Positions 1 to 26,110 of a stretch of DNA of 26,661 bases are shown piece by piece. This stretch comes from Catajapyx aquilonaris (lineage: Eukaryota). A model generated the notes under the pieces. The model was not told where the DNA came from, did not search any database, and was given only the letters and a program-made list of their open reading frames with translations. The position numbers were made by a program, and so were the translations under genes. The stretch lies in contig KZ538273.1 of assembly GCA_000934665.2 (NCBI GenBank), forward strand, positions 62,001-88,661, in the 5' to 3' direction. Within the stretch, counting starts at the first letter, position 1; each line of letters opens with the position of its first letter.

Positions 1-767
1 TCTGGGGGTTTAAATAGCATTTCATGCGGATATGAGGGTTTGCCTCTGTAACGTTTCATAATTACGGGTGTTAACATTAATTATGGTGATAACTGCTGTT
101 ACGATTATAATATGATATGTGATGTGCTATGAGATGTGACATAAATTCAAATGTGTGGCAGTAATGTCATGTATTAAGCATATAACTGGTTTAAAAATGT
201 CGGCTCATAAAACTACCTTGATCAACATCGCACTTTCTATATAATAACATATGTCAAAACAATTCGGCTGCTAAAACCCCGAATTGTGCAAACTCATTGT
301 TCCAACCGGATCAGAACTTTTTAAAACTAAAATAGTTGGCTGCGCGTCCCCAATTTTAGCCCGTATCTATTCATATGAATAGTTTTAGCCTTTTTAATTG
401 ACATCATTATATATTGTTCCTGGTTTTGCCGTTGTCCATTTACCAGACTTGGACAGTGGTGGTCGCCCTGATAAAACCACCCCCACAAAAAAAAATCCCC
501 CAACAAAATTGGGAACCATTCACCCTATTGGCAACCCCACGTTCAGGTTCTAACAAGACCCATGTATCGCACCTTCCATCAATAAATCTCCAACAATAGC
601 AGCTCTTTTAGCGACTCCAAATTTATTATGCCTCTCTTATCGTCTCTTACTGCCCAGATTTATCACAAGTCCTTTATTTACAGGAAGCTCTAACGACATT
701 GGCCCAAATCAGATGGGACTTGGGGACGTCCCATAAGGAAAGATTAACAGGGGGGAAAAAGACGGTG

Positions 768-847
768 CCACTAGAGGCGCTGAGTGTCAACAGACACTCC
801 CGCTAGGTGTCAGCACTGCAGGTAAGCCACGTGTATCCGCCATTTTC
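768..847 (+). promoter_or_regulatory. Candidate cis-regulatory/insulator motif cluster (two CTCF-like motifs, E-box, YY1 motif)
   Basis: CCACTAGAGGCGCTG (768-782) and CCGCTAGGTGTCAGCA (800-815) resemble the CTCF core CCASYAGRKGGCRS. They are separated by a 7-bp hairpin GAGTGTC-AACA-GACACTC. CACGTG lies at 828-833 and the YY1-like CCGCCATTTT at 837-846. Motif matches were made by eye only. Confidence 0.4.
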
Positions 848-1962
848 TCTACTGCTTAATCACCATTTTATCAGTTTATGGAGAAGATCTAGACGCGACT
901 AGTTGTGCCGTAGTGCTTTACAACTACTGAGCCATTTCCACCCAGATCTATGCGTTAATTGGCTCCTCAAAACTAGCCTAACTCATGAACTGAGGTGGAG
1001 GGTTTTGTCCTGCTAACTGACAGTAAATGTGGTTGAAATGACACGCCCTGATTTTACCTACGTTTTGGCGCCCCCCAGAGAGATAACAATGTTAGGAGGC
1101 CTGAGGCTACTTAGCGCCATTACCCGAGCCCAACAGCTATCGCTAAAGCTTATTGACAGATTAGCCATGGTGTTAATGGCCGTGTTGTTGGTGGATGCAG
1201 GATGAAATGGAGATTGTTATAGATGCTATCAACAGGCCACTTTTTGAAAATTGCATTTTCTATGAAAAAAAGTCATGGCCAATTCGTACAACAATTATTT
1301 GCGCCATCTATACGAGTGGTGTGGTACTGTCTACATTTCCCAATTTAACACAATAGCCAGTTTAGCTTCAAATAATCATTTCGCTCCAACACAATACCTT
1401 ACCCCCATATGAATATTAATGTAATGCATATTCAGCTGTTATAAGTTCACCTATCCGTAGTACTCTCCGACGTTTAGAGGTAGTAGCACAATGCACTTTT
1501 GGCGACTGAACATGTTCCCCTCCCCCCCTCCCTATTGGTAATAATGATATGCAAAGCGTTGTAAATGTACATTGTAGTATTAAAACTCCCAGGCCTGGGT
1601 ATATTTTTTTTCTGCACACAAAGCATCGCATATCCTTTGATGTACGAGTGCTGGGGCTCCACAATTTTGTACTTGGACTCAAATAGACCGCGGTAGTATC
1701 GAGGACTCTGCAGGAATGTACTGTATACAGCGTAACATCAAAAAGAAGGGGGGGGGGTTGGAAAAGCAGGTGCAAGGTACTGCTACATTACGGATCACTT
1801 GTCAGATTTATTGGATCGGTTAAAGAGTAACATGCTGTTATGTGCAAGTATGCGTAACTGTACAGTACTGCATGATTAGAAGTACTTGTAAAATTAATGA
1901 ACTCGAAATGTGTCCAAAAAAAATCAGGATAGGCACCACATTGTTGAATTATGTCACCTTAA

Positions 1963-2367
1963 AGGGACACTCCACTCAAAAAACAAGTTTGGCTCTAAAA
2001 ATCGGGCAAAAAATCCTGAATCTGAAGGTGCAATCCGTTTTTCGCTACGCTTAACGGTAATCCCAGGGCGAGGGGTCAAAGTGTGTCGTCCACTAATGAG
2101 AGGCGCCTCCACGCGGGGAACAGGGGAACTGGAGGGCTGCACCGCTCTGGGATGGGCTTAAGCGCGCGGGCAGGCGGGAGCAGCCCTCCAGTTCCCAAGG
2201 TCCCGATGGCGGCGCTGGCGGACGGCCAGCTTCTAGCGAATTTCCCCACTTTGACCCCTCGCCCTGGGATTACCGTTCCGCGTAGCAAAAAACGGATTGC
2301 ACCTTCGGATTCATGATTTTTTGCCCGATTTTTAAAGCCAAACTTGTTTTTTGAGTGGAGTGTCCCT
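1963..2367. mobile_element. Non-autonomous Kolobok/T2-type MITE, 405 bp, TTAA target-site duplication
   Basis: TTAA at 1959-1962 and 2368-2371. Termini are AGGGACACTCCACTC...GAGTGGAGTGTCCCT. TIRs of ~121 bp (1963-2083 vs 2247-2367) differ at about 6 positions. There is an internal inverted pair GGGAACTGGAGGGCTGC/GCAGCCCTCCAGTTCCC. TTAA plus AGG termini are the known signature of Kolobok/T2 MITEs (piggyBac ends usually begin CC). Confidence 0.88.
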
Positions 2368-2653
2368 TTAAGAGTGCTGATGGCTCAGATGGCTAGACAT
2401 ACAGTATTTTATGGCTATGTAGACCATTGCGAATATTTTTGCAATAATAGTTGCCATTTAATGAAAATGACAAAATTTTACGAAGTAAGAAGCTACTAAC
2501 TATAGCTGCAACACTGGCGTCACTTGTAACTATATCCGTTACGTCAGTACACTGCTCTGGTTATAACTGCATGGGGTAATATTTCAGAAAAAGAGGCCTC
2601 TAAGTGCAAGTGAAATTTACGATCAAATTACCTAAAATTTAAGTGTAAAAGTG

Positions 2654-2687
2654 CAATAACCAGGTAAGTGTACTTACCTGGTTATTG
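2654..2687. repeat. Perfect 16-bp-arm palindrome containing consensus 5' splice donor CAGGTAAGT on both strands
   Basis: CAATAACCAGGTAAGT-GT-ACTTACCTGGTTATTG; the arms are exact reverse complements. Confidence 0.9.
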
Positions 2688-3504
2688 TGGCCTACGCACT
2701 GTAATCACGCCTAATTACAACTTTAAAAGAGCTTAGGGACTATGCCTCACTGATCAATCCCTAACAATGCACATGAGGCAACAATAATTTTTTCCCCTAT
2801 CGGATCGACAATTTTCGTTTTCCAAAAAAGCTTCGGAATATACAGCCCCCCCATATTAGTCCTGTTTCTAGACACAAAGTTAGACGTCAGGCCATGCATA
2901 AACAAAAAGCTTGGCTGGAAGGCATCTCCGTACACAGCATCACCAAGCCTGCGTGCCTGCTCCGTAGACTAAGACGATTATCAACCGTTCCCCGGATTAC
3001 CTTTTCTCCGGGGAGGTTTAAAGCCTCTGAAGCTATTCGCCAGGCCTTAGCACAGCATCCACTTGGGCTCCGGAGCCTGGTGACAAACAGGGACGACTTT
3101 GGCCTCTGGATGGTAAAGGTTACGGGAACAAACTGGGGTGTCCTGGCCCTCACATTTTGCTAATCATGTAATGAGCAGGATTATTACGACATCAAGGGAT
3201 ATTATTTTTGTTTGGGTGAGTCATGAAGACAATATATTTGCATTGTTTGGGGCTTCTAGTAATGGATTGGATGAAGAAACATTTGAAAATGATGAAATGG
3301 GCACTGGCAGAGCCATCCGTAAACAAAGAAGCTTTCTGTTGTGTGATATCATACAAATTTAAAGGTTTATAAATATTTTAAAATAATTTTGTGAAATTTT
3401 TTACAGAATTTTGGACAATTTTTAACATAATTTTCTAACAAAAACCTCAAAGAATTATGCAGGACAATGTTTAAGAAAATTTTGAGACTTAAAAATTTTA
3501 AGTC

Positions 3505-3816
3505 TTTCACCAAAATTCTTTAAAGTTGTTATGAAATTCTCAAATACTTTTACTCGCTAAAATATTTTACAAAAATATTTTACAAATATTCTACAATTTT
3601 TTAAACAAATTTTTGCCAAATTCTTTGAAATTTTTGTTACTAAATTCTGAAAATATTTTCCAAAATATTTTCAAAATTTAGTAACAAAAATTTTAAAGAA
3701 TTTGGCAAAAAATGGTTTTAAAAATTGTAAAATATTTTGAACATATTTTTGTAAAATATTTTAGCGAGTAAAAGTGTTTGAGAATTTCATAACAACTTTA
3801 AAGAATTTGGGTGAAA
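3505..3816. repeat. Long AT-rich near-perfect palindrome (foldback), ~155-bp arms, essentially no spacer
   Basis: TTTCACCAAAATTCTTTAAAGTTGTTATGAAATTCTCAAA...TTACTCGCTAAAATATTTTAC pairs with GTAAAATATTTTAGCGAGTAA...TTTGAGAATTTCATAACAACTTTAAAGAATTTGGGTGAAA. The centre is at 3660/3661. It is embedded in an AAATATTT/AAATTT-rich block (~3360-3910). Confidence 0.9.
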
Positions 3817-3990
3817 AAAATTGTGAAAAGTCGTTTAAAAATGTGTAAAAATATTTAAATGGATTTTGTGAAATATTTCTTTTTATTTTGAAAGATTTTG
3901 AAACACATTTTAGCCTTATCTCGACTGCAATATTAATCCAAATTTTACAGTTTCATACCCATTTTACGCCCTTTAGACTTGTTAACGGAT

Positions 3991-4240
3991 ACAAGAGTCT
4001 TGAAAGTACAGCCTTGAGGTGACCCCCGAATGACCCCAGGCGATGTCAACAATGTTATTCATCACGGGTCTTTGAGATTGGCAGACATGTTTTTGCACCT
4101 GGTGTCAAATGTGGCGTACAAAGGATCAAAAGGAATAGTATCGCTTCAAAGTCGGTTTAAACTCCCACACCGTCTATTAGCACATGGGAAGAAGAGCCTG
4201 TTGCAAAAACAAGACTTTGTGACTTTCAGGACTTGTTAAA
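3991..4240. mobile_element. Possible non-autonomous Helentron-associated (HINE-like) or other small DNA element
   Basis: Imperfect subterminal inverted repeats AGTCTTGAAAGTACA (3996-4010) and TGTGACTTTCAGGACT (4218-4233). The left end is ACAAGAG with a CAAGAGTCTTG palindrome. The right end is AACAAG...CTTGTT followed by an A-run. Family assignment is inference. Confidence 0.3.
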
Positions 4241-4914
4241 ATATGCACCAAGGCAATGCAGGGATCCGCGAAACTTACATATTTGTATAAGACTCTCACA
4301 CGGCTGGGGTGAGCCACATGAGAAGTTGAAACATGTCATGCATGATTCAAGTACAGCATGCATGTAGGCCCCTCTAAGCAAGCCTCTAAGCTTAAGACAT
4401 CATGGTGTGTTCCAGTTGAGTAATGGAGTATAGAACAATGAACAATATATGCCATGAGAAGAATCCATATCAACAATGATGTCCGAGTAAGACGAGCTCA
4501 ATTGTAGGTTTTCCAAACGAACTTTTTGAGAAGCCAGAATATGACTGTTGTATTATATAAAAACATTTTCAAGCTATCATATTTTAAGTTTGAAGAAATG
4601 CGAAGCCTTAGACATACCCAGGAAATCAAATGCTCGGGAAACATGCAAAGCTTATAACAGTATGTCACAATGTGGTCGAAAATTGTGGCTTAAAGGTAAT
4701 TTGCCTTCAAATGTTTTAAATTTTACATTATATAGCATAAAGTTTGTATGTATGTCCGGGCTACCTAACCCACTTCCGGACTACTGAGAGTCCGGAACCT
4801 TTGCATACTAATCCACTGACTGAGAGAGAATTCTGAAAACTCCACTTTTTTGAGTCTCAAAATTTATGATTTTTTTTTGTCGCGTCACATATTTTATATC
4901 ACACATTTTAAAAA

Positions 4915-5210
4915 TCAAAATATATTATCATATACTATTTGAATACGGTTTAAAATAAGTTGACATATTTGCATGTACTTTTTGGATATTTTTAAAAATT
5001 TGTTCAGATATATTTTCATATATTTTTGATTATTTTTAAACATTTGTTCAGATATATTTTCATATACTTTTTGAATATTTAACAAAAAATTAGTTCACAT
5101 ATAGTGTATTTTCATATACTTTTTGAATACGGTATATTTAAAAATTAATTCGTGTATATTGTATATACTCTCTGAACACGGTTAAAATAGTTCACATAAT
5201 TATATTTTCA
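4915..5210. repeat. AT-rich degenerate minisatellite (~42-50-bp unit, core ATATTTTCATATACTTTTTGAATA)
   Basis: Recurring TTCATATACTTTTTGAATA and TTGTTCAGATATATTTTCATAT segments, about 6 degenerate copies. Confidence 0.7.
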
Positions 5211-5285
5211 TGCAGTCAACTCACTGCTAGGAGTTCACTTCAGGTACAGATGAAGTCCTATTGTTGCATATGTCGTAACATGAAC

Positions 5286-5319
5286 ACTCACCTGTAAAGA
5301 ATAGAAAACAAATTGTTAG
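5286..5319 (-). other. Candidate recursive splice site (ratchet point): juxtaposed 3' and 5' splice sites
   Basis: The minus strand reads CTAAC-AATTTGTTTTCTATTCTTTA-CAG|GTGAGT: branch-point consensus, pyrimidine tract, CAG acceptor immediately followed by a GTGAGT donor (junction between 5292 and 5291). Confidence 0.65.
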
Positions 5320-6062
5320 CCTCACAATAGCGACTATATCACCATTCAAACTTCTAACACTTGAAATATACAGGCAGTCCTATTCAGACACAAACATTCA
5401 CTGTGGGGGGCCTCCATGTTGATTCAGTCGTTTTGTTAGGTGTCGACCCACCTATCAAACTGGTCTCACAGAAAAATATGGGTCTAAAACAGCGATGCTA
5501 GAAGCCATGTCACATCCTCGTTTCTGCTCCCGGATTTATCGTTTGAAAGTGAATGGAGCTAGCCTTTCAATTGGTTGGCCGAGGGTGGAGGTTCTCCAAG
5601 GAGTCGTTGGGTCTCCTCCGGAATAGCCCGGAAAAAGAGACAGGTCTCCGGAGTGCGGAGCTGGAAAGATGCAGTTCCGAAGAAATAAGGCGGCTCTAAT
5701 GCATCATCGGTTACTTTTTCCAGGATTCCGCACTTTCTTTCCCTCCAATCTTCCCCTGCTAGATGGCGTGCAATCAAGCCCACGTCACTTCCCCCGGACC
5801 TCCTATTCCCCCGGATGGAGAAACGAGGCCTCGGTGGCCGAAAATACGGAGATAACGTGACGAAAACGCGGGTTCAAAATTGCCTCCAGGGATGGTCTCC
5901 CCCCCCTAACTCCATGTTTCAAAGGAGTCAAATCTTCTGGAAAATATTAGGCCGTATGCTCAAGATATTGTTTTAATGCAGAGTTCTGGTGGGACTGGAG
6001 CCAAAATGGCGTCTTGAAGTCTATTATGATGATGGTTGTGTGATCGTGACTTCGAATATATA

Positions 6063-6288
6063 CAGGGTGTTCCAAATTCGTGGATCGTTTTTTTATAACT
6101 GATATTGCCCGATTAGTTATTTTTTGTAGCTTGTTGCGCCCCTAACCAGGTGCTCCATTCTATAGAAACCGCTATATTCAATCACCTGGGTGTAATGGTG
6201 AACCTGGATCGCGGCACAAGTTACAAAAATAACTACTATTGGACTACGTCAGTTATTTAAAAATGACCGACGAATTTGGAACACCCTG
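6063..6288. mobile_element. Tc1/mariner-type MITE, 226 bp, TA TSD
   Basis: TA|CAGGGTGTTCCAAATTCGT...ACGAATTTGGAACACCCTG|TA: a perfect ~19-bp terminal match with imperfect inverted similarity continuing ~95 bp inward (ATAACTGA/TCAGTTAT, AGTTATTTTT/AAAAATAACT, CCAGGT/ACCTGG). TA is at 6061-6062 and 6289-6290. Confidence 0.85.
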
Positions 6289-6495
6289 TATTAGGAGTGA
6301 AAAGGTAAACTTTAAAATGCACAAATAAAAATATTGAGTGGGCCATTAAAGTTTTTAATTTTATTTCTTATTTATTGTTATTAATTGATTCCTTTCATTT
6401 TATTAATATAATGTGTTTTGATTCATTTTTTAATTTTGTTTAATTCTATGAAATTGTTTAATTTTTATTAATTTGTTTATTTTATTTTATTTTAC

Positions 6496-6525
6496 CAATT
6501 TCGTTAATAATAATTAACGAAATTG
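6496..6525. repeat. Short perfect hairpin (13-bp arms, 4-nt loop) in a T-rich low-complexity block
   Basis: CAATTTCGTTAAT-AATA-ATTAACGAAATTG. Confidence 0.8.
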
Positions 6526-6704
6526 TTATTCATTTTAATTTTTCATTCCATCTTCATTTTAATGTTTTGAATTAATTATGTAATTTTTCTTTTGATTTCA
6601 TTTACGGTATATCATTTTTGTGCATTTTATTTTTCTAGTTTAGTTTGATTCATATATTTCATCGACAGTTGTTAATTCCCAGAATTTATTTCATGTAGTT
6701 CAAA

Positions 6705-6895
6705 TTTATTTCATTAATTTCATGGATTAATTTCATTAATTTCATGGATTAATGTCATTAATTTCATGGATTAATTTCATTTCATCAATTTCATGAATTA
6801 ATTTCATTTCGTCAATTTCATGGATTAATTTCATTTCATCAATTTCATGAATTAGTCTCATTTCATCAATTTCATGAATTAGTCTCATTTAATCA
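6705..6895. repeat. Minisatellite, 22-bp unit grading into a 27-bp unit
   Basis: CATG cores at 6721, 6743, 6765 (22-bp period), then 6792, 6819, 6846, 6873 (27-bp period). Unit is approximately ATTTCAT(TTCAT)YAATTTCATGRATTA. Confidence 0.85.
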
Positions 6896-7944
6896 ATAGG
6901 TTTCATTTATTTCGATTAATTAATTTAAATAAATTTAGTATTCATTTAATAATAATCTATTAATTTTCAATGCCTCTACTTAAATAAATAATGCGCATTA
7001 TTAAATCCTACATAATCTGAGATTTTTATCCTTAATATGCGTCCAACCAAACGGGTCCTTTGTTAGTAAATACTTGAAACAAGTTTTCTAAAACGTAATG
7101 ACCTACTAAAAACCGGTTTCGACCTCTGTTAAAAAAAATACATGTTTGCAAAACTTCCCGGCGCAAACTTTAATCCCTCATGTTGCACCAATAGCGGAAT
7201 CGTTACTAGTCCCCGACGGGGGTTGTAATCCGGGGGTGTTGTCAGTAACTTTGAACAACACCAACGGTCCATAACAGGACCAGGCAACACCCGTGTTATG
7301 ATGCTGCACGGCACACGCGCTTTACATACATGAATAAAATGGAGCTCACTAGGTGAAAGCCAAAAACTCTATGAATACTCTGAATTTTTTTTTACTATGA
7401 GAAAAAAAATAGTTTTGTCAGGCAATTACTCTTCCTGAGCGATGACACATTTAGGACATGGACTGTCCCCCCTTTTTTTTGGTGTCGCCATACATTTTTG
7501 CAGAGTGAAGCGTCACAACTTCTTCGATCTTCTCATATTTACCAAAACACTCCGGTCGACAGTGAGAAAGTGCCAATTTTTCTGATGGCCTGGGTAAAAA
7601 CGCATGTTTTTCATAAACCCAGTTTTTTTTGTGTGGGTGTGTGTAAAAGCAAGCGCGAGAGTACACACCTGCAAACAAATTGGTGGTACTCTTCCGTGAC
7701 ACTTCCAACCCCCCTGACAGAGATATATGGGTGGACATGATGCGCAAAGGGCCCTTCACCCAAAGCAATTCCGTCCTTTCCATTAGTCCGGGAGATGGAC
7801 TGGCAGTCGACCCTACCCTAGTTTTGTCCCATGGATAAGAGTGAAAAGCCAATGGGAAACCGGCAACTATGTTTATTACAGTAGGACCAATGAGTTTGTT
7901 GGACAAATAGGAGAGTGGAGGAGAGTTTGGTTGAATTTCGTCAC

Positions 7945-8452
7945 ATTCTGCGCAGGCCTGAACAAAAGTTTTTGCTTCTACGCAGATTTTTTTTCATCGT
8001 TCTGAGCAGAAAAACACACTTTTCCCCATCTGCGCATGTCCTTATCGCCGTTCTGAGCAGGCCTTAATAAATTTTCACTTCTGCGCAGGTTTTTATTCAT
8101 CGTTCTGCTCAAGAAAGCACATTTTTCCGCTGCTGCGCATATCCTTCTCGCCGTTCTGCGCATAAAACATATTTTCACGCTTCTGCGCATGTTTTTTCAT
8201 TGTTCTGCGCAGAAAATTACACTAAATAGGATTCTGCGCAGTTCCTTTCCCTTGCGCTCAGGCCGTCCATATTTTCAGGTTCTGCGCAGGTTATTCTCAT
8301 CGTTCTGCGCAGACAAGCATATTTTCTAAGCTTCTGGGCAGGCACAGGTCATTCAGATTGTACTGCGCAGACTAGCAATTATTTTTCGGTTCTACGCATG
8401 CCCCCTGATCATCCTGCGCAGTGCATCTAATCACTACCGAATCTGCGCAGTC
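7945..8452. repeat. Degenerate array built on a TTCTGCGCA(G) core, roughly every 20-40 bp
   Basis: Many copies of CTGCGCA and one-mismatch variants (CTGAGCA, CTACGCA, CTGCTCA), with recurring TCATCGTTCTGCGCA and CATATTTT segments. Confidence 0.8.
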
Positions 8453-8945
8453 TACTCACAAATCACAATAATTATACCGCTTTATGAGTGCAAATTATTG
8501 CGTATTACCATACAAACAGTACATGTCTTGACACAACAATATTCGGACAATCAGCAGTACATTTTGGAATATGCAACAATCACGAACATTGCGCATCATC
8601 ACACATGTGCCAGATCATGTTATGTCCCCGGGAGCTGAGCTGGATCTATCCAAAATTTCCAATCAAAATCGGAGCATTATTAGGCATCGCACTGTGTATA
8701 GGTTACTGTATGTCCCACCTGTCACCGCTACTGTCATCGCATCTAACAGCTTATATATTACGCTCCGTTACTACTAATGAGCCTCACACTATGGCTTTAA
8801 AATATCGCTACTTTTAAAATTATTAATATAAGCGATACCGCATTTCGATACTGTGAGAACGATTTTTGATACTTTTATTAGCTATATTAGAACAGCTGCA
8901 AAGGCTATAAAAATATATTGCTGCCGAAATTGGGCGAAATTGATG

Positions 8946-9115
8946 TGTTTGTCCGGGGTGAGTAATCACCTCCACTCAACCAAGTCCGCGTAGTACCAAT
9001 GTCCATCGCATAGATGGCATATACGACCTCTCAGCACACTACTACCACTCTCAGTCGTGTGAGGGTACTACATGGACCTAGCTGAGTTGAGGTGATGACT
9101 CACCCCGGATAAACA
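8946..9115. mobile_element. Unclassified foldback/MITE-like inverted repeat, 52-bp arms
   Basis: 8946-8997 (TGTTTGTCCGGGGTGAGTAATCACCTC...GTAGTACC) is the reverse complement of 9064-9115 (GGTACTAC...GAGGTGATGACTCACCCCGGATAAACA) with 8 mismatches, mostly transitions. No TSD recognised. The inverted repeat is certain; the mobile origin is inferred. Confidence 0.65.
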
Positions 9116-9194
9116 GACAGCAAATCTATAATATTAAAACCATTTTCATGTTGTATGGTTATGCCTTCTGATTGCTCAGCCACACGACGATTCC

Positions 9195-9249
9195 GATTGG
9201 CCCCCGTTCTGCGCAGGCGCAATGGGGTTGGAGGCAGCGCCTCTGGTGG
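9195..9249. promoter_or_regulatory. Promoter-like motif cluster: reverse CCAAT, NRF1 site, CTCF-like motif
   Basis: GATTGG at 9195-9200; TGCGCAGGCGCA at 9210-9221 (NRF1/EWG-type site); CCACCAGAGGCGCTG on the minus strand at 9235-9249. Locally GC/CpG-rich. Confidence 0.35.
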
Positions 9250-10334
9250 GTAGGAGAAGGAACCATCCATTTGTTCCCTATCGGCGGGAGGGTCTACATC
9301 GCTCCCCCCTACCCCCACCCAGTGAGCGAATAAAGGGTACGGTATTATTATTATCCATCTCCATATCTACCCATAATCTTATCCGGACCATATCACTGGT
9401 CCCTTACTGTTCCTTCCAATTGTTGCACGTAACGACCAATCACACTTCAGGACCTCAGATCTTGAGGTTTTCATCCACCTAGAGCTAGATGGGGTTATGT
9501 ACTACGGTCCACTTTTGTCACGCTCCCCAATTATGATTAAAGCTGTCTGTGAGCCGAATGTGAGGAAGGTAAAATGGGGCCATTCCCTCCCCCACCACCC
9601 CCCACCACCTCCTCCCTCCTTCTGTCCAAGATTAGACAGCGTCCCTCCAGAGGACTCTGGTCCCTGTCCCTTTTCCGGCCCAGAGAACGAACTGCCCCCT
9701 AGGCGACCGTTTGGAGTGTCTCGGGATAATCCTAATCATGATTTGTACCCTTCCTCCCCATCCTTGTGTGTCCGGGACTGTTTACTGTCCCAGGGTCCGG
9801 CCTGACATAACTTTTGTCCCAAGCGGACGTTTCCGCTTCCGACCATTCAGAGCGACGGGCCGCAGACCAATTGCCTTTCGGAGGTTCCAAATCTAAAGTA
9901 ACGTCACCCCAGGTGCCTTCCTCGCCCACCAATCTCGGGGATCTTTAACACTCCGAACAGCCACAGTGCCCCCCTCACTTTCTCACACTCTTGGAGATAA
10001 GGAGGTGATGGGACTTATAAATAGAGAGGAGACGATTGGAAATAGGGCTATCAAAAGGGCGGTCAACGATGAAAATTATCGATACTCGCTAATGTAATTT
10101 AAGAATAGCAATAAAATCAGGCAAATAGCGGCAGAGAGTAGAAATTCACATTTTTTTACTCATTAAAATATTAACTGCTGAAATGAGGCCGAATAACAGC
10201 TATGCGATGGTAGATTGTGATACTAGGAGCACCATTACGTATCATATTATTTATTTGTTCGTCCTTTTGCTTGTTTGTTGGTTTATTAGTTTAGTTAGTT
10301 TGTTGGTTACTAGTTTATTAGCTTAGTAGTTAGA

Positions 10335-10640
10335 TTTTTATTATTTTTATTATGTATGAGTTAATTTACGATTTTCATTATTTTTATTAATGTATTAGTA
10401 AATTTAGGATTTTCATTATTTTTATTAGTGTATTAGTAAATTTAGGATTTTCATTATTTTTATTATGAGTTAATTTATGATTTTCATTATTTTTATTATG
10501 AGTTAATTTATGATTTTCATTATTTTTATTATGAATTAATTTATGATTTTCATTATTTTTATTATGAGTTAATTTATGATTTTCCTTATTTTTATTATGT
10601 ATGAGTTAATTTATGATTTTCATTATTTTTATTAATGTAT
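10335..10640. repeat. 33-bp AT-rich minisatellite
   Basis: Unit ATGAGTTAATTTATGATTTTCATTATTTTTATT starts at 10465, 10498, 10531 and 10564, with longer variants on both sides. Confidence 0.9.
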
Positions 10641-11609
10641 TAGTTATTGTTTTCATGATATATTAGTTAATTTGGTGTTATTATGTATTTGTTTATTAGT
10701 TTTCTGTTTTTATTATTTGATGTTTTTAAGTTTATAGATTCGTCTTTGTAGTTTTTTATTAAGTAGCTCATTACTCTCATTAGTTTTTTCGTTTGCTGAT
10801 ATGTTTATTTTAATATTAGTTATAATTTGTTTGTTTCATCTTAATTTAGTCGGTTCCATCATTTTTCTCTCCCATCCCTGTCCTTGCCGCAATATGACGC
10901 CAGCTTCCCAAAATTTAAAGGATCTTCCAGGGGTTTATTAATGTGACAAAAATTATTTATCTAAAATTTGGTCCCCCTTCGAGCCAACACGTATCGCGCG
11001 CCATCTGCTGAATACCTTCTCTCTTCTCTCTTCTTCTTCTTCTTTTTGTCCTCAGAAGAAAAGAGACGTGGTCCCAGCCGCGTCTCGCTAGTGCCGAAAC
11101 GTGCCTCACAGTCCCAAGTGCGCTATTGGACGACTTAATGAACTCAAATGACCACGGAGGAAAAGACGAAGAATGTCGCCATTGTTGATTCCACACCATG
11201 CTCCTCATCAAAATGGGGCAATTTTTTGGTAAAAAAAAATAGTTAATAATTGTACAGATATTATGCTTTTGGCGTAAATGTGACAAAGAGGCGGGGGTTG
11301 CTAGGGGTTGACACGAGTCCGAGTTTCTATGGATGTCCGGTTGACTCTATGGGGATAAATGGCCGTCTGATGCGAACCGTGGGCTTCAAAGTTAGCAAAC
11401 AGGCAATTTCTGCGAATTCGAAGTGAATGGGTAGGGACCCGGTTTCAGGAATAGAACTCCCGTTTGTCCACGTTCCGCTTTCAAAAGGCCAAGTTCCGCG
11501 ACCTCTACCTTTTGGGGAGAAGCTATTCAGGTGAGACGAATCAAAAGGGGGCAATCAAGTGAGATGGTCTGATGATATACGAACGGAGATAACTATCATG
11601 GAAGGTTAT

Positions 11610-12047
11610 GGACGAAATAACCGAACTGGACCTAACCTAACCAAAACTAACAGAACAGAAACGAAACACAGCGAAACGAACTTTGCCGAATCGAAACTAA
11701 CCAAAACGAAACGAACCAAAACGAAACGAAACGAAACGAAACAAAACGAGGCAAATCGAAACGAAACGAGACTACCGAACCGAACATATCCGAAACGAAA
11801 CGAACCAAAATGAAACGAAACCAGAACGAAACGAAACCAGAACGAAACGAAACGAACCAAAATGAAACGAAACGAAACGAGCCAAATCGAAACGAAACGA
11901 GGCTACCGAACCGAACCAAAACGAAGCGTTACAAAACGAAATAACCCGGAACAAATAAAAACGAACCGAGTTACGTTAGCCGAACCGAAACGATCAAAAC
12001 TAAACAAAACGAAAAGGGACGAATCGAAACTAACCGAACCTAACCTG
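11610..12047 (+). repeat. Degenerate (AAACG)n pentanucleotide microsatellite
   Basis: Long runs of AAACG with AACCG/AACCA/AATCG variants. It explains the FRFVS and KRNET ORFs in the track. Confidence 0.95.
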
Positions 12048-12639
12048 ACAGTGATCCTACCGGTCTCATTAATCACTATCGACACTTTGTGAATTAGCAT
12101 CAGCCCAATCGCACTTTTTCCCTCCCTTTAAACGCTTCCCCGGAAGCATATATCCAACCAGGCTATTAATTTAGAATTGATCGCCCCCCCCCCTCCCCAA
12201 CTTGATCCTCCCTCCCTCCCCTCCTCCCACCCCTTCCGTACTAATAATTCGTCTCCTGCTGCAAAGTAATAATATATCAAAGCCTTATTACATCATGTCG
12301 GGCCAGGGTCGGATTAAGTCAGATTTAAAATTGCGTTTGGGTCTTAATTACAGTCTGCGCCATTCACTTTGAGGCTAACTGCTTTGAAGCCCCTCACCTT
12401 TCCTCTGAGGCTATATTAGCTACCTGCTGTGTTTCCGCACCTGTCGATCAAATGTGTTGATCAGATTTGCAGAGAGTTTTTTTTAAAGTGAGGGATAATT
12501 AGCAATTACGGACAGCAAACATTACGGTCTGGATGATCGCAATTGCCTTAGTTGACTGCTACTCTATAGAGCTGTTAATTATAAATGGAAGCGCGTTCAG
12601 GTCATTCCGGAGATGACTGTCTTAATAGAGAAATTAGAG

Positions 12640-13130
12640 TAAATAAATAGCTATTCGTAGATAAATAATATTAAACAACTACACAAATAACGTTTATGGC
12701 TAAAACTAATAGCTAAAATAAATCATAAATGGCTATTTGTAGCTAAATAGGAATGAAATAGCTAAAAATAAAGAGCTATTTGTAGCTAAATAAGTAGAAA
12801 AGTAAATAATTAAACAAATAATAATTAAAATAAATACGTACATAAACAAATAGTTAAATAAATGTACATAACTTTTCGTAGCTTTATGAATAAAATTGAA
12901 CAGTTAACAATAAACAGTTGAAATGAAGAAATTAATATTTATTTGCAGCTAAGTAAATAGCAAATTAAATAACTAAACAAATAGCTCAAATAAACAGCTC
13001 AATCAACATAATATAGCTCAAATAATCAGTTAAGTCAACAAAGAGCTCAAATAAACAGCTAAGTCAACACATAGCTGAAATAAACAGCTGAAAACCTCAA
13101 AAAGCTAAAATGGTGAAATAAATAAATAGC
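12640..13130. repeat. A-rich degenerate repeat with AAATAGCT / CAGCT core
   Basis: Recurring GCTATTTGTAGCTAAATA and TAGCTCAAATAAACAGCT segments. Confidence 0.7.
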
Positions 13131-13148
13131 ATTAGACCCAAAAGTGAC

Positions 13149-13283
13149 AAGAAGGGGTGTGATTATGCGTCATATTTCCCACCCCATAATAAATTTGTCT
13201 TCGTTTTATTTAAGTTCGGTTCGGTTCGTTTTGGTAGCATCAAGAAGGGTTGTGATTACGCATCATATTTCCAACCCCCATAA
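13149..13283 (+). repeat. Direct repeat pair (~42 bp) separated by ~50 bp
   Basis: AAGAAGGGGTGTGATTATGCGTCATATTTCCCACCCCATAAT (13149-13190) vs AAGAAGGGTTGTGATTACGCATCATATTTCCAACCCCCATAAT (from 13243). Confidence 0.8.
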
Positions 13284-14153
13284 TTCATCTTCCGATTTGC
13301 AAAAACACCGTATCTGATATCCCCCCTTGTCTTTCGCACCCGCTTAATTCCCACCCTGCTAAAACTTCACCCCCGCATAAAAAATCCGGGCTTAGTGTAC
13401 TTAGAGTCAGGCCGATTCAGCATAACAAGATGAGCATAACAAGCATATCATTACATGTCCCCCCCCCCCCTCTATTTTTGGGGGGGTATCCACCCACTGC
13501 CACCCACCCCCCTAAAAAAAAAGAGCCGACAAAAGCCCTCCCCCTATGCCACCCATGGTATCGATTTCTGGCCTTCGTCCCACATTCTCGTCCATGCTCA
13601 TAATTGTTATGAAATACCGGGAGGGGGGGGGGGGTAGCAGGACACTGGTTCGAATCCGGTCCCCACATGAATTATACGGGTGGCCATTATTGATGTCACA
13701 TATTCAGGTTGGAACTACATGCATTTAAATCATGTGTTAAAAGGGTCCCCAATTGTTTTTTCGAGGCCCTCAGTATTTCACGTTTGGTCAGCAGTGTCCA
13801 CTCGGATATGACGTCACCCATTTTTAAAATAAAACGATAGTTTTTTTAAAAAAATATAAAGCTTTTTTACGGAAGTTCTGGTACGGGCTGATAAGAAGGC
13901 TAGATTTCCATTTTTATTGTGCGGGTAAGGGTATTAGCAGTCTTTGGAGGAAGAACCTGAGCCGTTTGGGTGAATATTTTAAGAAATTTTCGGTGGCCTC
14001 AAGTTTGGTTACACACGAGGGAGATTGGAAAGGTGTTAACAAAGCAGTTAGCGATTTAATAGCAGTCTCAAATCTAGTAGCAGGACTGCTAAAAGAGCAA
14101 TTAATAGTATAGCAGCAAACCTGGCGAAATAGCGGATAACTGATAACAGGACT

Positions 14154-14380
14154 GTTCCAATAGCAGCTAAGAGCGGACATGTTCAAATAACAGCTAAGAG
14201 CAGACCTGTTCAAATAACAGCTAAGAGCAGACCTGTTCAAATAACAGCTAAGAGCAGACCTGTTCAAATAACAGCTAAGAGCAGACCTGTTCAAATAACA
14301 GCTAAGAGCAGACCTGTTCAAATAACAGCTAAGAGCAGACCTGTTCATATAACAGCTAAGAGCAGACCTGTTCAAATAAC
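14154..14380. repeat. 27-bp minisatellite, ~8.5 near-identical copies
   Basis: Unit GTTCAAATAACAGCTAAGAGCAGACCT at 14181, 14208, 14235 ... 14370. It explains the LSCYLNRSA ORF. Confidence 0.95.
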
Positions 14381-14611
14381 AATAGCAGAACTTGAAATGA
14401 CGGTTACTAGCAGACATGGTAGCCTACTGTTAATAGTCCAGTAACATAACTGTTATAATAGCAGTTGAAAGCAGTCTGGTAAAATAACTTAATAGTGGCC
14501 ACATTAAATAAGTAGTCAATATTCGAGTAGCATAATGTTAAAATAGCAGTTGATAGCAGAACTATGAAAACAACGGTTAATAGCGGACATGTTAATATAA
14601 CATTGAATTGT

Positions 14612-14822
14612 AGAACTGTTAGAACAACAGATAATTCCAGAACTGTTAGAACAACAGATAATTGCAGAAATATTAGAACAACAGATAATAACAGAACTGT
14701 TAAATTAACAGATAACAGAACTATTAAATTAACAGATAACAGAACTGTTAAATTAACAGATAACAGAACTATTAAATTAACAGATAACAGAACTGTTAAA
14801 TTAACAGACAACAGAACTTAAA
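14612..14822. repeat. 27-bp (x3) then 24-bp (x5) minisatellite
   Basis: AGAACTGTTAGAACAACAGATAATTSC x3, followed by AGAACTRTTAAATTAACAGATAAC x5 with alternating G/A variants. Confidence 0.9.
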
Positions 14823-15121
14823 TTACCGTAACAGTTAAGAGCCGATCTGTTCAACTAGTAGCTAATATTAAAACTATTCAACAACAGATAATAGAACTCT
14901 TAAAATAACGGTTAATAGCGGACATGTTAAGTAACCGTTAATAGTCGAGTAGCATAACTGTCATAATAGCAGTTGATAGTAGTCTGGTAAAACTGTTAAT
15001 CGAGGCCATGTTAAATTAGTACCGGTAGTCAATATTCGAGTAGCATCTGTTAAAGTAGCAGTTGATAGCATAACTAAAAACAAATCTGTTAATAGCGGAC
15101 ATGTTAAAATAGCATTTAACT

Positions 15122-15212
15122 GCAGAACTGTTAAATGGTACTTAATAGCAGAACTGTTAAGTGGTACTTAATAGCAGAACTGTTAAGTGGTACTTAATAG
15201 CAGCACTGTTAA
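15122..15212. repeat. 26-bp minisatellite, ~3.5 copies
   Basis: GCAGAACTGTTAAGTGGTACTTAATA at 15122, 15148, 15174 and 15200. Confidence 0.9.
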
Positions 15213-16065
15213 AATAACATAATAACAGAACAGTTAAATAACGGCTAATAGCAGGCATGTTGAAGTAGCAGTTAATAGTCGAGTAACAAGACTGTTATAA
15301 TAGCAGTTTACATCAGAACTGTTGAAGCGACTGTTAATAGCATGTGTGTTAAACATGAGTTTTTTTAATTGCCCCGTGATGACCTGTTGGGTCTATAGGG
15401 GGGTGGATTACCACCATTGGAAGGATAGGTCTTTTGCCTATTATTGAATACGCCCGGACCCACGGGGAGGGAAACTAGGAGGGGATGTGCAAAGTGCATG
15501 TGCAATATCTTTGATTTTCCGTTTTGTGGACTCCCCCGGGTGGCTTAGTTGAAAGGATCGCCACCCAAGACGAAGCCACAAACATGAGTTAATCATCTAG
15601 TAGTACAACCGTTAAAGAAGCAGTTAATAAAACTGTTAAATGTCACTGCTGACGTGAGGGGTGTGAATTGTCTGTGGATGTCACTGTGGGTAGAATTCCA
15701 TAGAATATCCTTGATGGAGTCAGCATTGTTGCCAGGTCCAAATGAGGCGTTCCAGTATAGTTGTTCTGACAGAAAGAGGGCAATGCATAGCACAGCAGGA
15801 TCTTCATCTCCGGGAGGGGGAAGTTTTGCAAGGCCCATGGACATGAACAATGGCCTCTGAGCAGACCGGATGCTCATTTTTATTTTTCTTCTTCCTTCCC
15901 CTCCCTACCCCCAGAGGGAGAGGGGGTAGGATGTTTCCAGTTGCACACTCCGGGGATCAGGAAGAGGATCCCGGACGCAGCCAAACTTGGCCGGAAATGG
16001 AGGAGGACGACCAAGGCAGCACACTGGCTTAACAAGCCATGAACTATCATGGGAGAAAAAAAATT

Positions 16066-16417
16066 GGTATTTCCAACCGACGATGTCTAGTCACGTGAAG
16101 GCGCCATTTTGGAACCGGTTGGAAATATATGGTGTTCCGACTTTACGTGAGCCCCTTTTAGCATTGGGGCTTGGAAATACATGGTGTTCCGACTTCACGT
16201 GAGCCCTATCAGCATAGTGGCTTGGAAATACGACAGAAAAGTACGCCCAAATGCAGTTAGACCGTACAGTGCGGCACAATTATGCAGACCAATTGAACAT
16301 ACAGTATCACTTATGTAAAAGGACCGTCCGCATGTATTTCTCACCTCTCCAATCACGTAATCAAATGAGGACTCAGCGTACCCCATCAAATTAGAGTCTG
16401 CATGGTTGGAAATAACC
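16066..16417. mobile_element. Possible MITE remnant with TATTTCCAACC/GGTTGGAAATA inverted repeats and an internal ~52-bp tandem duplication
   Basis: TATTTCCAACCG (16068-16079) is inverted to CGGTTGGAAATA (16116-16127) and to GGTTGGAAATA near 16404. The tandem unit TTGGAAATAYATGGTGTTCCGACTTYACGTGAGCCC... starts at 16119, 16171 and 16222. Confidence 0.4.
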
Positions 16418-16820
16418 TCATTTAGAGTTCTGAAACCACCGAATTTTTAAAACCCTATAATATTAAAATTGGAAAGCACGTGCCAAATGAATCATTTAAA
16501 AACTGGACAGATTGGCACCACTGTAATTCCCCAGGGTTGACGCCGCCTAGTGTATGACTCTGCACATTAATCCGGCCAAAAAATTAACGCATGTAATGAA
16601 CACTGGGCTTTTTTTTGTGTGTGTGTCCGGTGAGCTAGGGCAGTTTGAAGACCAAACTTTTTTTTTATGTCGCACCGACACGGGCTAATTAGACCACAGA
16701 GCTAAGCACCGGATAAATTACAACGGCTTGAAGTAACACATGCGACAATGTTGCCATTTTAAATAACGTCTGAAATTTTTTTATTTGTTAGAGAAAAAAA
16801 AATCACAATTCCACGAAATA

Positions 16821-17358
16821 TTTTGACATTCAGGACTTAACCAGTCAGTGGCAGCCGCCATTTTTGGTCCAAACAAATATGGACGAAAGTACTTCGATAT
16901 GAATGAATTAATGAACGAACGAACATAAAATAAATAAATAAATATGAAACGAATAAATAAACATGAAACGAATAAATAAATAAAAATAAAAATGAAACGA
17001 ATAAATAATATAACTTCATAGAATAAATATATAAATCAAATTAAAATTCAACGAATAAATAATATAAATAAATAAAATAAAAATAAAGAAATAAAAATTC
17101 TAAGAATAAGAATATAACATTCAAAGAATTAAAAATTAAAATTCAACGAATAAAAAATATAGAATTCAAAGAATTAAAAATTAAAATTAAACGAATAAAA
17201 AATATCGAATTCAAAGAATTAAAAATTAAAATTAAACGAATAAATAAGTAAATAAAAAACAAAACTAATAAATATATAAATATATAAATAACAGGAAGCT
17301 TTTTGACCTCCAGCAACTGCCATGGCGGTCGCCATTTTTGGTCCAAATCAAGATGGAC
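16821..17358 (+). repeat. Two ~60-bp GC-richer direct repeats bracketing an A-rich minisatellite block
   Basis: TGGCAGCCGCCATTTTTGGTCCAAACAAATATGGAC (16849-16884) vs TGGCGGTCGCCATTTTTGGTCCAAATCAAGATGGAC (17323-17358), each preceded by TTTTGAC...CAG. Between them are ATGAAACGAATAAAT repeats and a 45-bp unit (TTCAAAGAAT at 17120, 17165, 17210). Confidence 0.8.
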
Positions 17359-19937
17359 TTCGTAACCTTCACTCCTTTCTAACTTTCCTCTTCAAATATG
17401 GGTGATGACAGGTAACACCGCCATGAACTTACCCCAATTTACGCGACTTACACCCAATTGTCGTGTCCCAAGCAATCCAAACGTCAACCGGTTTTCGCAT
17501 GGACACCTATCGGCTAAAACCATTATCCCATCACGCAAACTTTTATTACAATGTCCCCCCCCCCCCCTTCCTCTCCATACTTTGCAATGGAAGCCTTTAT
17601 GACCCCCTGACTCGCACACTCCCCCCCTACTAATAAATTCCAATTGCAATTTTATCAGTCAATTTTGCTATCCATAAATAACCAAAAAGAAGTTGCATTA
17701 AAACCAGTTTTGAAGGTGGGCGGTCCAGATTGGCTCGATAAATATTTGGCCAAGGTTTTTCCCAAAGTGTTTATGTCAAGTCATAAAGTACTGTCGTGAC
17801 AAGGTCCGATCGTGACACTCTATCACACGACAGGTCCTATATATTTTTGGGGGGAGATTTTTTTTTTTTTTGGGGGGGGAGGGGTAACTCAAATCCTTAT
17901 CAAAGAAGTGATATTGCCCCGACTCCAAAGGGAATGTATAATTTCGGGTCCACAAGAAGTTGAAAATTAGAAACACTTGAGAGTGTCGTAAATCTACGAA
18001 AGGGGGGGTAAGTAGGTCGGGGGGTGGGGGGGGGGGCTGCAAATTGTAATCATACACGCTCAGGAAGAAAGTGTGTGGAGCAATATTGTTTAATGTGAGT
18101 TTCATGCCAAGGATTGTTGGGGCGCGTCACACCCATGACGGTGACTAAAAAGAAATGCTTTATGGGCTATCATACCCATGAAAAGCGCCATATATGTGGG
18201 AGGATATGGCATGGAGTAAAACTGTTTTAATATTTGAGTGTGTTATACATGCACTGAGTTAACAGAGAAAGTCCGCACATAATTAACCCGTGCGAGCCAA
18301 CATTGTGCAAATGACATATGTCAACATAGAGGTCCACTCTTTAAAAATTGTGTTGTAATTATTGATTTGGCACACATTCACATATGCATTGCGACTAAAC
18401 GAGTTTGGAGCAACAATACAAATAATTATTGCATCATACATCTGCAATAAATGACAATGAAGGGCCTTCAACTATACACTTGAAGTGCTCTCAACGTACT
18501 TTTTGGCGCATCAAAAGCCTAGTGTTGAGGTTAACCCGGGTCCTCTCAGGTCATATACCACTGACACCGCCAACAATACCCTCAACAATGACCTCCATAC
18601 CACACTTGTCACTAAACAAGCCCGTTACACAACAAATCGCGGCCATTTTGGATCAAGTTTGTGCCGCCATATTTAGTCCAGCGCCATTTCAGGTCCACTT
18701 TCTCACCTTTTTTTTCAAGTACAGGGTGAGTCAGCTAGTTATTTGGACGGCAGATGTTAATTTTGGCAACTTATTACTAGCATTCCAACATATGCCAACA
18801 CTACCCACACAACTAGGCCAAAAGTAAGACCGAATCTAAATATTGACCCCCCCCCCCCGGAAACAGTATATCTGAGTAGTTCCGGTGGATACATTTTCAA
18901 CCCTTTAAAGATCCGGCAATATTTCAGTGGAAGCAAAACATCTCCTTTGAAACCCCATGTTTTTGATCTACCATACTTTTTCTTAGTTTTCTTTTCCAAA
19001 ATGATCTTTTCAAAAAGCTTTTTCAAAACACGACTTTTGGACTAATTTTGGAGCCATTTCCAAGATGCCTTTCATCCGATGCTCGGATTCTAATTAATAA
19101 TTGCCTCCACTGCAGTCCTTAAAAGTGTCCTTAAAAGATTTTTTTAAAATAGATCGAAAAAGATGCGCGCGCATATCCGCACAAAATCTAATGCTTTAAT
19201 AGAAATTGTTTTATCAATATTTCTTTGACGAATATTCAAATGAGGTCATACCGGTTGTTTACAAATTGCGCAATTAATTATGGACCTGGTAGCCCACATC
19301 ATTGCACTTGGCCGAAAAATTTGCATGGTAATTAATATTCGGCTAGCAGTCATTGCCTAATTCAGCGTGTGTGCATACAACGCTATTTTATGCATAATAT
19401 CTCGGGAGGAAATCAGCAGAGTTATGATCCGACATTTTGCTAAAAAAAAACAACAACAACCAGAGGGTAAATCGCCAATGGTGCAAATGGTGTGTAATGT
19501 TGTGCAAAAAAGTTCGCAAATTTCTGCTAATTTGCTGAAAATTCATAGCAGCTAAGCTAAGCTTCTACTAAAAATGGCAATAACAGTTTGCAGGAGTAGC
19601 TACTGGTATGGATTAAATTAGCGAACCAGTTCGATAATTAATTCGCTTTAGTTATTAGACTAATTGTGCAGTGGTTGAGAATCTATAGCGTTTTGTAAAT
19701 TTTAATGCATAAAAATTAATTAAACAATGGTAGGCCAGCGTAAAATTGATCCAAACAAAAATTAAGAATGAATTATTATGACTAATATTAATGACATAAA
19801 TATGCACAATTATGCTCATATACTTGTATAAATTACACAGTATATTTACAAATAAATTGTGCAGTATATTTACAAATAAATTGTACACTATATTTACCAC
19901 AGTATATTCATTGATTAATATTAAATTTTTCATAAAT

Positions 19938-20160
19938 CTGCCGTCCGCTGGAAGAAGACCGTAACTCAACATCCACTTTCCCTTGCGGCGAGAAAAAAAG
20001 GAGTGGTACCAAAAGCATCCAACAGATGGAGGTGGGGTGCCCGTTCCTTTTCCCACTTCCTTCAATGCCACTTCTTGGTGGCTTTCGGTAACACTTTCTT
20101 ACTTTTCTCGCCGCAAGGGATGTGGATTTTGAGTTACGGTTTTTTTCCAGCGGGTGTCAG
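19938..20160. mobile_element. Unclassified foldback/MITE-like element, ~80-bp arms plus inner stem
   Basis: CCGCTGGAAGAAGACCGTAACTCAACATCCACTTTCCCTTGCGGCGAGAAAA (from 19945) is the reverse complement, with few differences, of TTTTCTCGCCGCAAGGGATGTGGATTTTGAGTTACGGTTTTTTTCCAGCGG (to 20153). There is an inner GGAGGTGGG/CCCACTTCC stem. No TSD recognised. Confidence 0.7.
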
Positions 20161-24271: not shown

Positions 24272-24596
24272 TGAATATAATAATTAAATATTAGTATGAA
24301 ATAATATAATAATTAAATATTAGTATGAAATAATATAATAATTAAATATTAGTATGGAATAAAACAATAAATTTATATCAGAAATATAGCTATAAATAAA
24401 ATAACAAATTAATATCCGAAATATAGCTATAAATAAAATAATAAATTAACATCAGAAATATAGCTATAAATAAAATAATAAATTAATATCAGAAATGTAG
24501 CTATAAATAAAATAATAAATTAATATCAGAAATGTAGCTATAAATAAAATAATAAATTAATATCAGAAATGTAGCTATAAATAAAATAATAAATTA
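24272..24596. repeat. Adjacent 29-bp (x3) and 37-bp (x6) AT-rich minisatellites
   Basis: TAGTATG at 24292, 24321 and 24350 (period 29). AGCTATAAATAAAATAA at 24388, 24425, 24462, 24499, 24536 and 24573 (period 37). Confidence 0.92.
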
Positions 24597-25496: not shown

Positions 25497-26110
25497 CAAG
25501 TGACCTTGATAACTGGAACGTGATTCGAGTAGACGTTTTCTCATTGGGAAGTACTAATTGGACAACAATGACATAGAATGATGTTAATCTTATTTCTCAT
25601 TGCCAAGGAACTTCTAATGGACCGCCTCCCTGACCGCCAATCTTCTCTACCGCCAACGCACATTTTCATTTACCGCCAAAAGTCCTGACTGCCAATTTCC
25701 TTTACCGCCAAAACACATTTTATTTTACCGCCAAAAGTCCTGACCGCCAATTTCCTTTACCGCCAACACACGTTTTCATTTACCGCCAAAAGTCCTGCCT
25801 GCCAATTTCCTTTACCGCCAGCACACATTTTCCTTTACCGCCAAAAGTCCTGACTGCCAATTTTGTTTACTGCCAAACCCGGATCCCGGAAGTTGACCAT
25901 GAAACGTGCTTTGGTAACGCTGAATCCGAATCCAAAAGCAGTTTGTCGATATCACTTGCAGTTTAGGCCCCGATACTTGTCCACAGACGGACGGACAAAC
26001 CAGTTTTTAAAAACTTTCTGTGATAATAAAAAGCCTAAATTTTTGTACAAAATTTCAAAATAATGTCTTGAGACCAGAACAGTGTAAATGTTGTATGTCA
26101 AGGTCACTTG
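25497..26110 (-). mobile_element. Candidate HINE/DINE-1/pearl-like non-autonomous element carrying the 55-bp array
   Basis: The perfect 13-bp inverted repeat CAAGTGACCTTGA (25497-25509) / TCAAGGTCACTTG (26098-26110) brackets a central tandem array, a short ACAGACGGACGGACA tract (25983-25997) and the palindrome AGTTTTTAAAAACT. True ends and TSD are not resolved. Confidence 0.4.
25629..25877. repeat. 55-bp minisatellite (~4.5 copies), each unit with three ACYGCCA motifs
   Basis: AGTCCTG at 25681, 25736, 25791 and 25846. Unit is approximately CCTGACCGCCAATTTCCTTTACCGCCAACACACATTTTCATTTACCGCCAAAAGT. Confidence 0.93.

Follow-up and report, generated by a model that had tools for sequence, protein, structure and literature searches.

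A candidate intronic ratchet point of the Drosophila type on the minus strand of a repeat-rich, non-coding window of eukaryotic DNA

Intronic ratchet points with cryptic RS-exons in Drosophila are said to have been described by Hatton in 1998, Burnette in 2005 and Joseph in 2018, and vertebrate RS-exons reportedly by Sibley in 2015. In flies, as set out in the relevant part of Joseph 2021 (PMC8605326), a ratchet point is a juxtaposed acceptor/donor pair with a cryptic RS-exon that is short (~50 nt, variable), has a downstream donor and is generally out of frame, and the donor of the ratchet point is generally stronger than that of the RS-exon. The same part of that source puts intronic ratchet points in flies at >500 versus <50 expressed ones. 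Fly ratchet points lie on the sense strand of very long introns, according to excerpts from the literature (the longest few per cent of introns; the sites are common in those of >40 kb), and the excerpted preprint of Duff (10.1101/006163) gives TT at positions -5/-6 for 196 of 197 fly ratchet points versus 43.8% of all introns. Vertebrate RS-exons, in the excerpted account of Blazquez 2018 (PMC6224609), are likewise defined first and then skipped by way of the rebuilt donor, and their inclusion produces a poison exon. The mechanism, the cryptic poison exon and the competition between donors are all already described in flies and vertebrates. Other marks of a fly ratchet point are RNA intermediates (reads joining an exon to the ratchet point, a saw-tooth profile of read density and recursive lariats) and an AG/GT core that is sharply conserved among poorly conserved flanks.

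Experimental work on recursive splicing comes from Drosophila, human and mouse. Our search of the literature beyond these three found only a motif count of 2009 in sea urchin, mosquito, bee and beetle. Verification of a site in a further lineage would widen the known range of the mechanism. A paper on bee elavl2 mentions recursive splicing solely to exclude it for a 3-nt exon, and a sequence feature of human recursive splicing, as described in the accessible part of a 2026 preprint, depends on the intron's own 5' end. The 2009 count, in the part of Shepard et al. that reports it, gives the density per 100 kb of high-scoring ratchet-point motifs, in introns of >50 kb, for the sense versus the complementary strand. 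Values on the two strands were 2.196 and 0.101 in fruit fly (ratio 21.7), 1.029 and 0.000 in mosquito (ratio >>10), 0.807 and 0.101 in beetle (ratio 8.0), 0.540 and 0.066 in sea urchin (ratio 8.2), and 0.484 and 0.122 in bee (ratio 4.0). Sense enrichment in these five invertebrates is thus 4- to >20-fold, against a background near 0.1 per 100 kb; in vertebrates the ratio is 0.9-1.5, with no sense-strand enrichment in large introns (Shepard et al. 2009, same part). Given this enrichment, a strong copy of the motif in a long invertebrate intron, if it is on the sense strand, is functional in more cases than not, and elsewhere such a motif is background.

The window analysed here is a stretch of 26,661 nt of DNA. 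Read directly, its minus strand contains gaggCTAACaatttgttttctattctttaCAG/GTGAGTgttcatg (the slash marks the cut), which is a branch-point-like CTAAC, a T-rich tract and CAG/GTGAGT. The parts of the site, within 5219-5319, are as follows.

5315..5319, minus strand: branch-point-like CTAAC, its second A at 5316, 24 nt upstream of the acceptor G
5296..5312, minus strand: polypyrimidine tract TTTGTTTTCTATTCTTT, 17 nt, 15/17 pyrimidines
5292..5294, minus strand: CAG acceptor (3' splice site), cut between 5292 and 5291
5286..5291, minus strand: GTGAGT donor directly behind the acceptor; the ratchet-point donor, which the first splice would regenerate
5225..5291, minus strand: candidate cryptic RS-exon, 67 nt, not a multiple of 3, with stops in 3/3 frames
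5219..5224, minus strand: second donor GTGAGT after GCA, 67 nt downstream; candidate RS-exon donor for exon definition

Fifteen of the 20 letters upstream of the YAG at 5292/5291 are pyrimidines, positions -5/-6 of the acceptor (5296 and 5297) are TT, and the gap from CTAAC to the CAG acceptor is free of AG. The stops of the 67-nt segment are TGA in frame 0, TGA in frame 1 and TAG in frame 2. Against CAGGTAAGT, CAG/GTGAGT agrees at 8/9 positions and GCA/GTGAGT at 5/9, the true regenerated donor being one that would depend on the upstream exon. The original prediction had described a branch point, tract and acceptor fused to a donor at this place, and re-reading of the sequence confirmed its position and description in every detail, with all coordinates correct; its second statement, that the 67-nt segment has a stop in each frame and a length that is not a multiple of 3, was reproduced by a frame scan of 5291-5225.

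The site agrees with the fly rules in the juxtaposition of acceptor and donor, in TT at -5/-6 and in a short out-of-frame RS-exon with a downstream donor. Like Drosophila ratchet points, it has the form (Y)nNCAG/GTRAGT, a short cryptic exon out of frame and a downstream donor that looks weaker on the exon side, and its letters are nearly identical to those of validated sites; the Drosophila sites are validated by RNA evidence, whereas this one is known from its sequence. For numerical comparison we used the S1 table of Pai 2018 (PMC6110457) with 539 fly recursive sites, in which counts of terms cover the whole file and comparisons of rows cover part 1 of 11. An exact YAGGTRAGT is present in 85 of the 539 sites, namely 48 with CAGGTGAGT, 27 with CAGGTAAGT, 8 with TAGGTAAGT and 2 with TAGGTGAGT, and TTTACAGGTGAGT is present in 6 of them. 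The 16-mer TTCTTTACAGGTGAGT of the window occurs in 1/539 validated fly sites. Fly sites of the form seen here have normalised motif scores of 0.93-0.96 in the compared part of the table, and as a motif the window site is top-tier by fly standards. The Drosophila ratchet-point architecture that had been proposed for the site holds, and it is strengthened by TT at -5/-6, the 67-nt exon and near-matches to two validated sites.

The best explanation, which we put forward tentatively and with a little less than even confidence, is that the site truly is an intronic ratchet point of the Drosophila type, on the minus strand, its use being inferred from the letters of the DNA. If the ratchet point is real, the window would belong to a non-vertebrate animal and lie within a long intron of a gene on the minus strand. 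In the proposed sequence of events, U2AF and U2 would recognise CTAAC (A at 5316), the T-rich tract and CAG at 5294-5292, and U1 at the downstream GTGAGT (5224-5219) would define the 67-nt cryptic exon. Ligation of the upstream exon to 5291 would then rebuild a full donor, (exon end)/GTGAGT, and this rebuilt donor would out-compete the weaker GCA/GTGAGT, so that the next segment of the intron would be removed. As the rebuilt donor would win, the 67-nt poison exon, on this proposal, would never reach the mRNA. Vertebrate RS-exons differ from the window site in genomic setting: CpG observed/expected is 0.85 over the whole window, which argues against a vertebrate genome, as CpG so little depleted indicates a genome that is not methylated in the vertebrate manner.

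One fly site resembles that of the window closely, and it lies in muscleblind (mbl). The site at 2R:13203579 has as its host intron 2R:13163568-13238597 of gene FBgn0265487, which is mbl (coordinates as in the Pai 2018 table, PMC6110457). In part 1 of 11 of the table, the window 37-mer (5316-5280) compared by eye with this site is identical at 27/37 positions, and the identity is concentrated in a core.

5284..5308, minus strand: 25-nt core, 24/25 identical to the mbl site 2R:13203579; tract block plus CAG/GTGAGTGT in the same register

The sole difference in the core is at 5295, the free N (-4) of the consensus. Of the 539 fly sites a single one, the mbl site, carries the 13-nt tract block TTTTCTATTCTTT, in the same register, and CAGGTGAGTGT occurs in 2/539, of which one is again the mbl site. 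By a rough post-hoc hand estimate, a 24/25 match in the absence of homology has p of about 0.002-0.006 and this exact pattern about 1e-4; the counts entering it, from the fly table, were TTCTTTRCAGGTGAGT in 5 sites, 7 occurrences of TTTTCTA, and 2 of 51 AGGTGAGT sites followed by GT.

The mbl intron has features of its own that bear on this resemblance. Excerpts from the literature state that the second intron of mbl is ~75 kb in fly, where it is said to be recursively spliced, that it is very large in other insects (>700 kb in honeybee), and that the recursive intron separates two exons encoding the first zinc-finger pair. Fly mbl recursive sites are ~10 kb apart in the compared part of the Pai 2018 table (PMC6110457). 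The large size of the intron fits a window without exons. However, the flanks beyond the core differ, with 3/12 positions matching, and the window lacks the mbl sites next to this one: two other mbl recursive sites gave 0 matches in it at up to 3 mismatches, and they could sit beyond 21 kb upstream. Metagenome scans gave 0 matches, both with the 22-nt site and with the 25-nt pattern in which R was allowed at the free position. We treat it as a lead only, and a doubtful one, that the window site may be the true counterpart of the mbl site, kept at 24/25 in a genome that does not look fly-like by composition. If it were, stepwise removal of the mbl intron and the exact sequence of the ratchet point would be far older than drosophilids, and the site would count as an ultraconserved splicing element outside coding sequence; no functional recursive site would have been traced across distant invertebrates before it. 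A particular ratchet point would then be conservable over long evolutionary distances, which would point to a functional requirement and not to neutrality.

Such motifs may also arise by chance, and the frequency with which they do was estimated with a null of 1000 dinucleotide-preserving shuffles of the window, both strands being scanned. The core YAG/GTRAGT alone is common, with a mean of 0.58 per shuffled window and at least one copy in 458/1000 shuffles. Addition of at least 14/20 upstream pyrimidines reduced this to 36/1000, and addition of CTAAY to 4/1000; with a second GTRAGT 30-200 nt downstream the composite appeared in 0/1000 shuffles, all of these composite statistics being for features selected post hoc, after the site had been seen. 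YAGGTRAGT was observed 3 times in the real window versus 0.64 expected, and only 1 of the 3 copies has a pyrimidine tract, which is the site at 5292/5291; the remaining two together make a palindrome at 2661-2680. From the context frequencies of the window itself (10.0% of positions pyrimidine-rich, 0.55% also with CTAAY within -45..-10, and a probability of 0.062 for GTRAGT within 171 nt), the full composite is expected 2e-4 to 1e-3 times per window of 26.7 kb. The full composite is thus rare per window, and by our arithmetic a genome of a few hundred Mb would contain a few by chance.

These numbers bear on the alternative that the site is a chance composite in intergenic or antisense DNA which is never used, or is used as rare splicing noise. 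We consider this somewhat unlikely. It is favoured by that handful of composites per genome, by the post-hoc choice of features, and by the background in animals, since in the excerpted counts of Shepard et al. (2009) high-scoring ratchet-point motifs have a density of about 0.07-0.12 per 100 kb on control strands and in intergenic DNA of all the animals examined. The lack of any detected gene, exon or strand bias in the window is on the same side. Against it stand the shuffles, with 0/1000 for the full composite and 4/1000 without the second donor, and the 24/25 identity with a validated fly site, which by the rough estimate above is unlikely in the absence of homology. Moreover, four details lie in the direction expected of a ratchet point: TT at -5/-6, a branch point 24 nt from the acceptor, an intervening stretch free of AG and a second donor that looks weaker.

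The scans of coding content and strand that enter this comparison were as follows. The window is repeat-rich non-coding eukaryotic DNA, with 51 rows of tandem repeats, 17 families of direct repeats and 3 long inverted repeats. Of the 210 listed ORFs, 59 were scanned (all from about 75 aa upwards, together with two over the site) and gave no Pfam match at the gathering score, three-base periodicity in the window was confined to tandem repeats, and neither tRNA genes nor Rfam families at the gathering score were found in it. The longest ORF, a 180-aa frame at 7451-7993 on the minus strand, matched no Pfam family, and a search of proteins of 99-315 aa returned no homolog for it at E<=0.01. Pfam, homolog and periodicity scans together detected no gene or exon in the 26.7 kb. 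An exon-less window fits a long intron, and it fits intergenic DNA equally.

As for the direction of transcription, no strand asymmetry pointing to the minus strand was present in the window. Outside tandem repeats, hexamers of the poly(A)-signal type numbered 58 on the plus versus 46 on the minus strand, GTRAGT numbered 10 on the plus versus 10 on the minus strand, and the skews of the plus strand were small (A over T 2%, C over G 3%). Relaxed ratchet-point-like sites were 3 on the minus and 0 on the plus strand; one of them is inside a repeat and none is strong, and we draw no inference from them. A search of the 21 kb upstream on the minus strand found no second strong ratchet point, which counts against a ratchet point here and, given the ~10-kb spacing of the fly mbl sites, against orthology with mbl.

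It is improbable, in our judgement, that 5292/5291 is instead the normal acceptor of an ordinary exon that starts with GTGAGT. Such an exon would be 67 nt long, or shorter if an internal weak donor were used, and would be included in stable RNA; at the same low probability it would belong to a UTR, to a non-coding RNA or to a regulated poison cassette. A conventional exon would be delimited by just these elements (branch point, tract, acceptor and downstream donor), a donor-like TAG/GTGGGT ~160 nt upstream on the same strand makes a transcript with a short intron conceivable, and flies have expressed exons with ratchet-point features, as excerpted from Joseph 2021 (PMC8605326). However, in the counts from the same excerpt this expressed type is the minor one (<50 vs >500 intronic ratchet points), and the full 9-nt U1 match at the start of the exon would tend toward re-splicing. 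A normal coding cassette is ruled out by the length of 67 nt and the stops in 3/3 frames: the segment has neither an open frame nor a length divisible by 3. Pseudoexons and poison cassettes, too, are short stretches of intron that have usable splice sites and a stop in each frame, but they need no full donor consensus at their start, whereas the 67-nt segment begins with GTGAGT behind CAG.

The copy number of the site was examined with sequencing runs, of which X1-X4 are DNA from one sample and X5 is a run of unspecified kind. The site falls in one contig of X1.

4789..6089, strand not applicable: single-copy segment with the site; X1 contig of 1301 nt, 0 differing letters, depth 25.8

Other unique bins of the window have X1 depths of 23-38, and depths in the thousands occur at about 4735-4791, 6058-6113, 1958-2372 and 15342-16008, the first two of which are the high-copy repeats that bound the segment. 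The objection that the motif is part of a high-copy repeat, which had been raised together with the original prediction, came out negative and is removed because 4789-6089 is a single contig at single-copy depth with no differences. In the X1 contigs the region of the site is single-copy at >=90% likeness, and elsewhere in the window we found no look-alike of the site, only the tandem repeat next door and chance matches of 16-36 nt. Contigs of X5 over 1-20000 touch only repeats and low-complexity ends (1959-2371, 4735-4791, 6060-6159, from 15476, and ends at 495 and 16626), and they have no bearing on expression. That the site is a relic, an AG/GT left without present function by a lost exon or by an old mobile-element insertion with splice-like ends, is highly improbable, as the segment does sit between mobile-element-like repeats but its region is single-copy at that likeness, has no look-alike in the window, and nothing positive supports a relic.

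Several other elements of the window were recorded. A perfect inverted repeat at 2654-2687 has 16-nt arms and a 2-nt spacer, and its centre is CAGGTAAGT on both strands; it offers a full 5' splice-site consensus each way, has no pyrimidine tract on either side, and lies in single-copy DNA (X1 contig 2345-3542, depth 33.3). An inverted repeat at 1958-2372 with 126-nt arms, 95% complementary and 163 nt apart, is MITE-like in look, and its X1 depth is about 9,000-14,000 versus about 35 for unique DNA. A second MITE-like element at 6060-6291 consists of 124 nt between terminal inverted repeats of 54 nt (81% complementary) and is of high copy number in X1; it bounds the single-copy segment of the site and contains a relaxed AG/GTGATT at 6186 on the minus strand. 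At 3505-3816 lies a near-perfect AT-rich hairpin, most likely a foldback element, whose 155-nt arms (93% complementarity) are 2 nt apart. Its weak match to MIR6140, a plant miRNA family, was rejected (41.6 bits versus a threshold of 140), being the hairpin of the inverted repeat itself.

Two Pfam matches fell below threshold: CEBP_ZZ (E 0.008) and a SelB-wing that lies in a tandem repeat. The CEBP_ZZ look-alike, in a 94-aa frame at 22317-22598 on the minus strand, was rejected as chance because its E against CPEB1 structures is only 0.11 and one zinc-binding Cys is replaced; the preceding CxxC is also absent. The stop-free frame at 7451-7993 (minus strand) lies in single-copy DNA and is longer than expected by chance at this composition. 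Minisatellite arrays occupy 14152-14381, 14528-14825, 10333-10646, 24358-24596, 25629-25876 and 11649-11900, and many are well kept. Among them are 8.5 copies of a 27-nt unit (96%), units of 24-27 nt, 8.8 copies of a 33-nt unit, 6.5 copies of a 37-nt unit (95%), 4.5 copies of a 55-nt unit and a (CGAAA)n-like repeat, and periods that are multiples of 3 give rise to long false open frames.

In dinucleotide composition, CC/GG is over-represented in the window at 1.29 and GC is at 1.08, a make-up that we take to be unlike that of Drosophila, so that the genome is presumably a different one; this also counts against orthology with the mbl site. Runs of 5-8 G or C are frequent, and the GC content per kb ranges from 19% to 52%.
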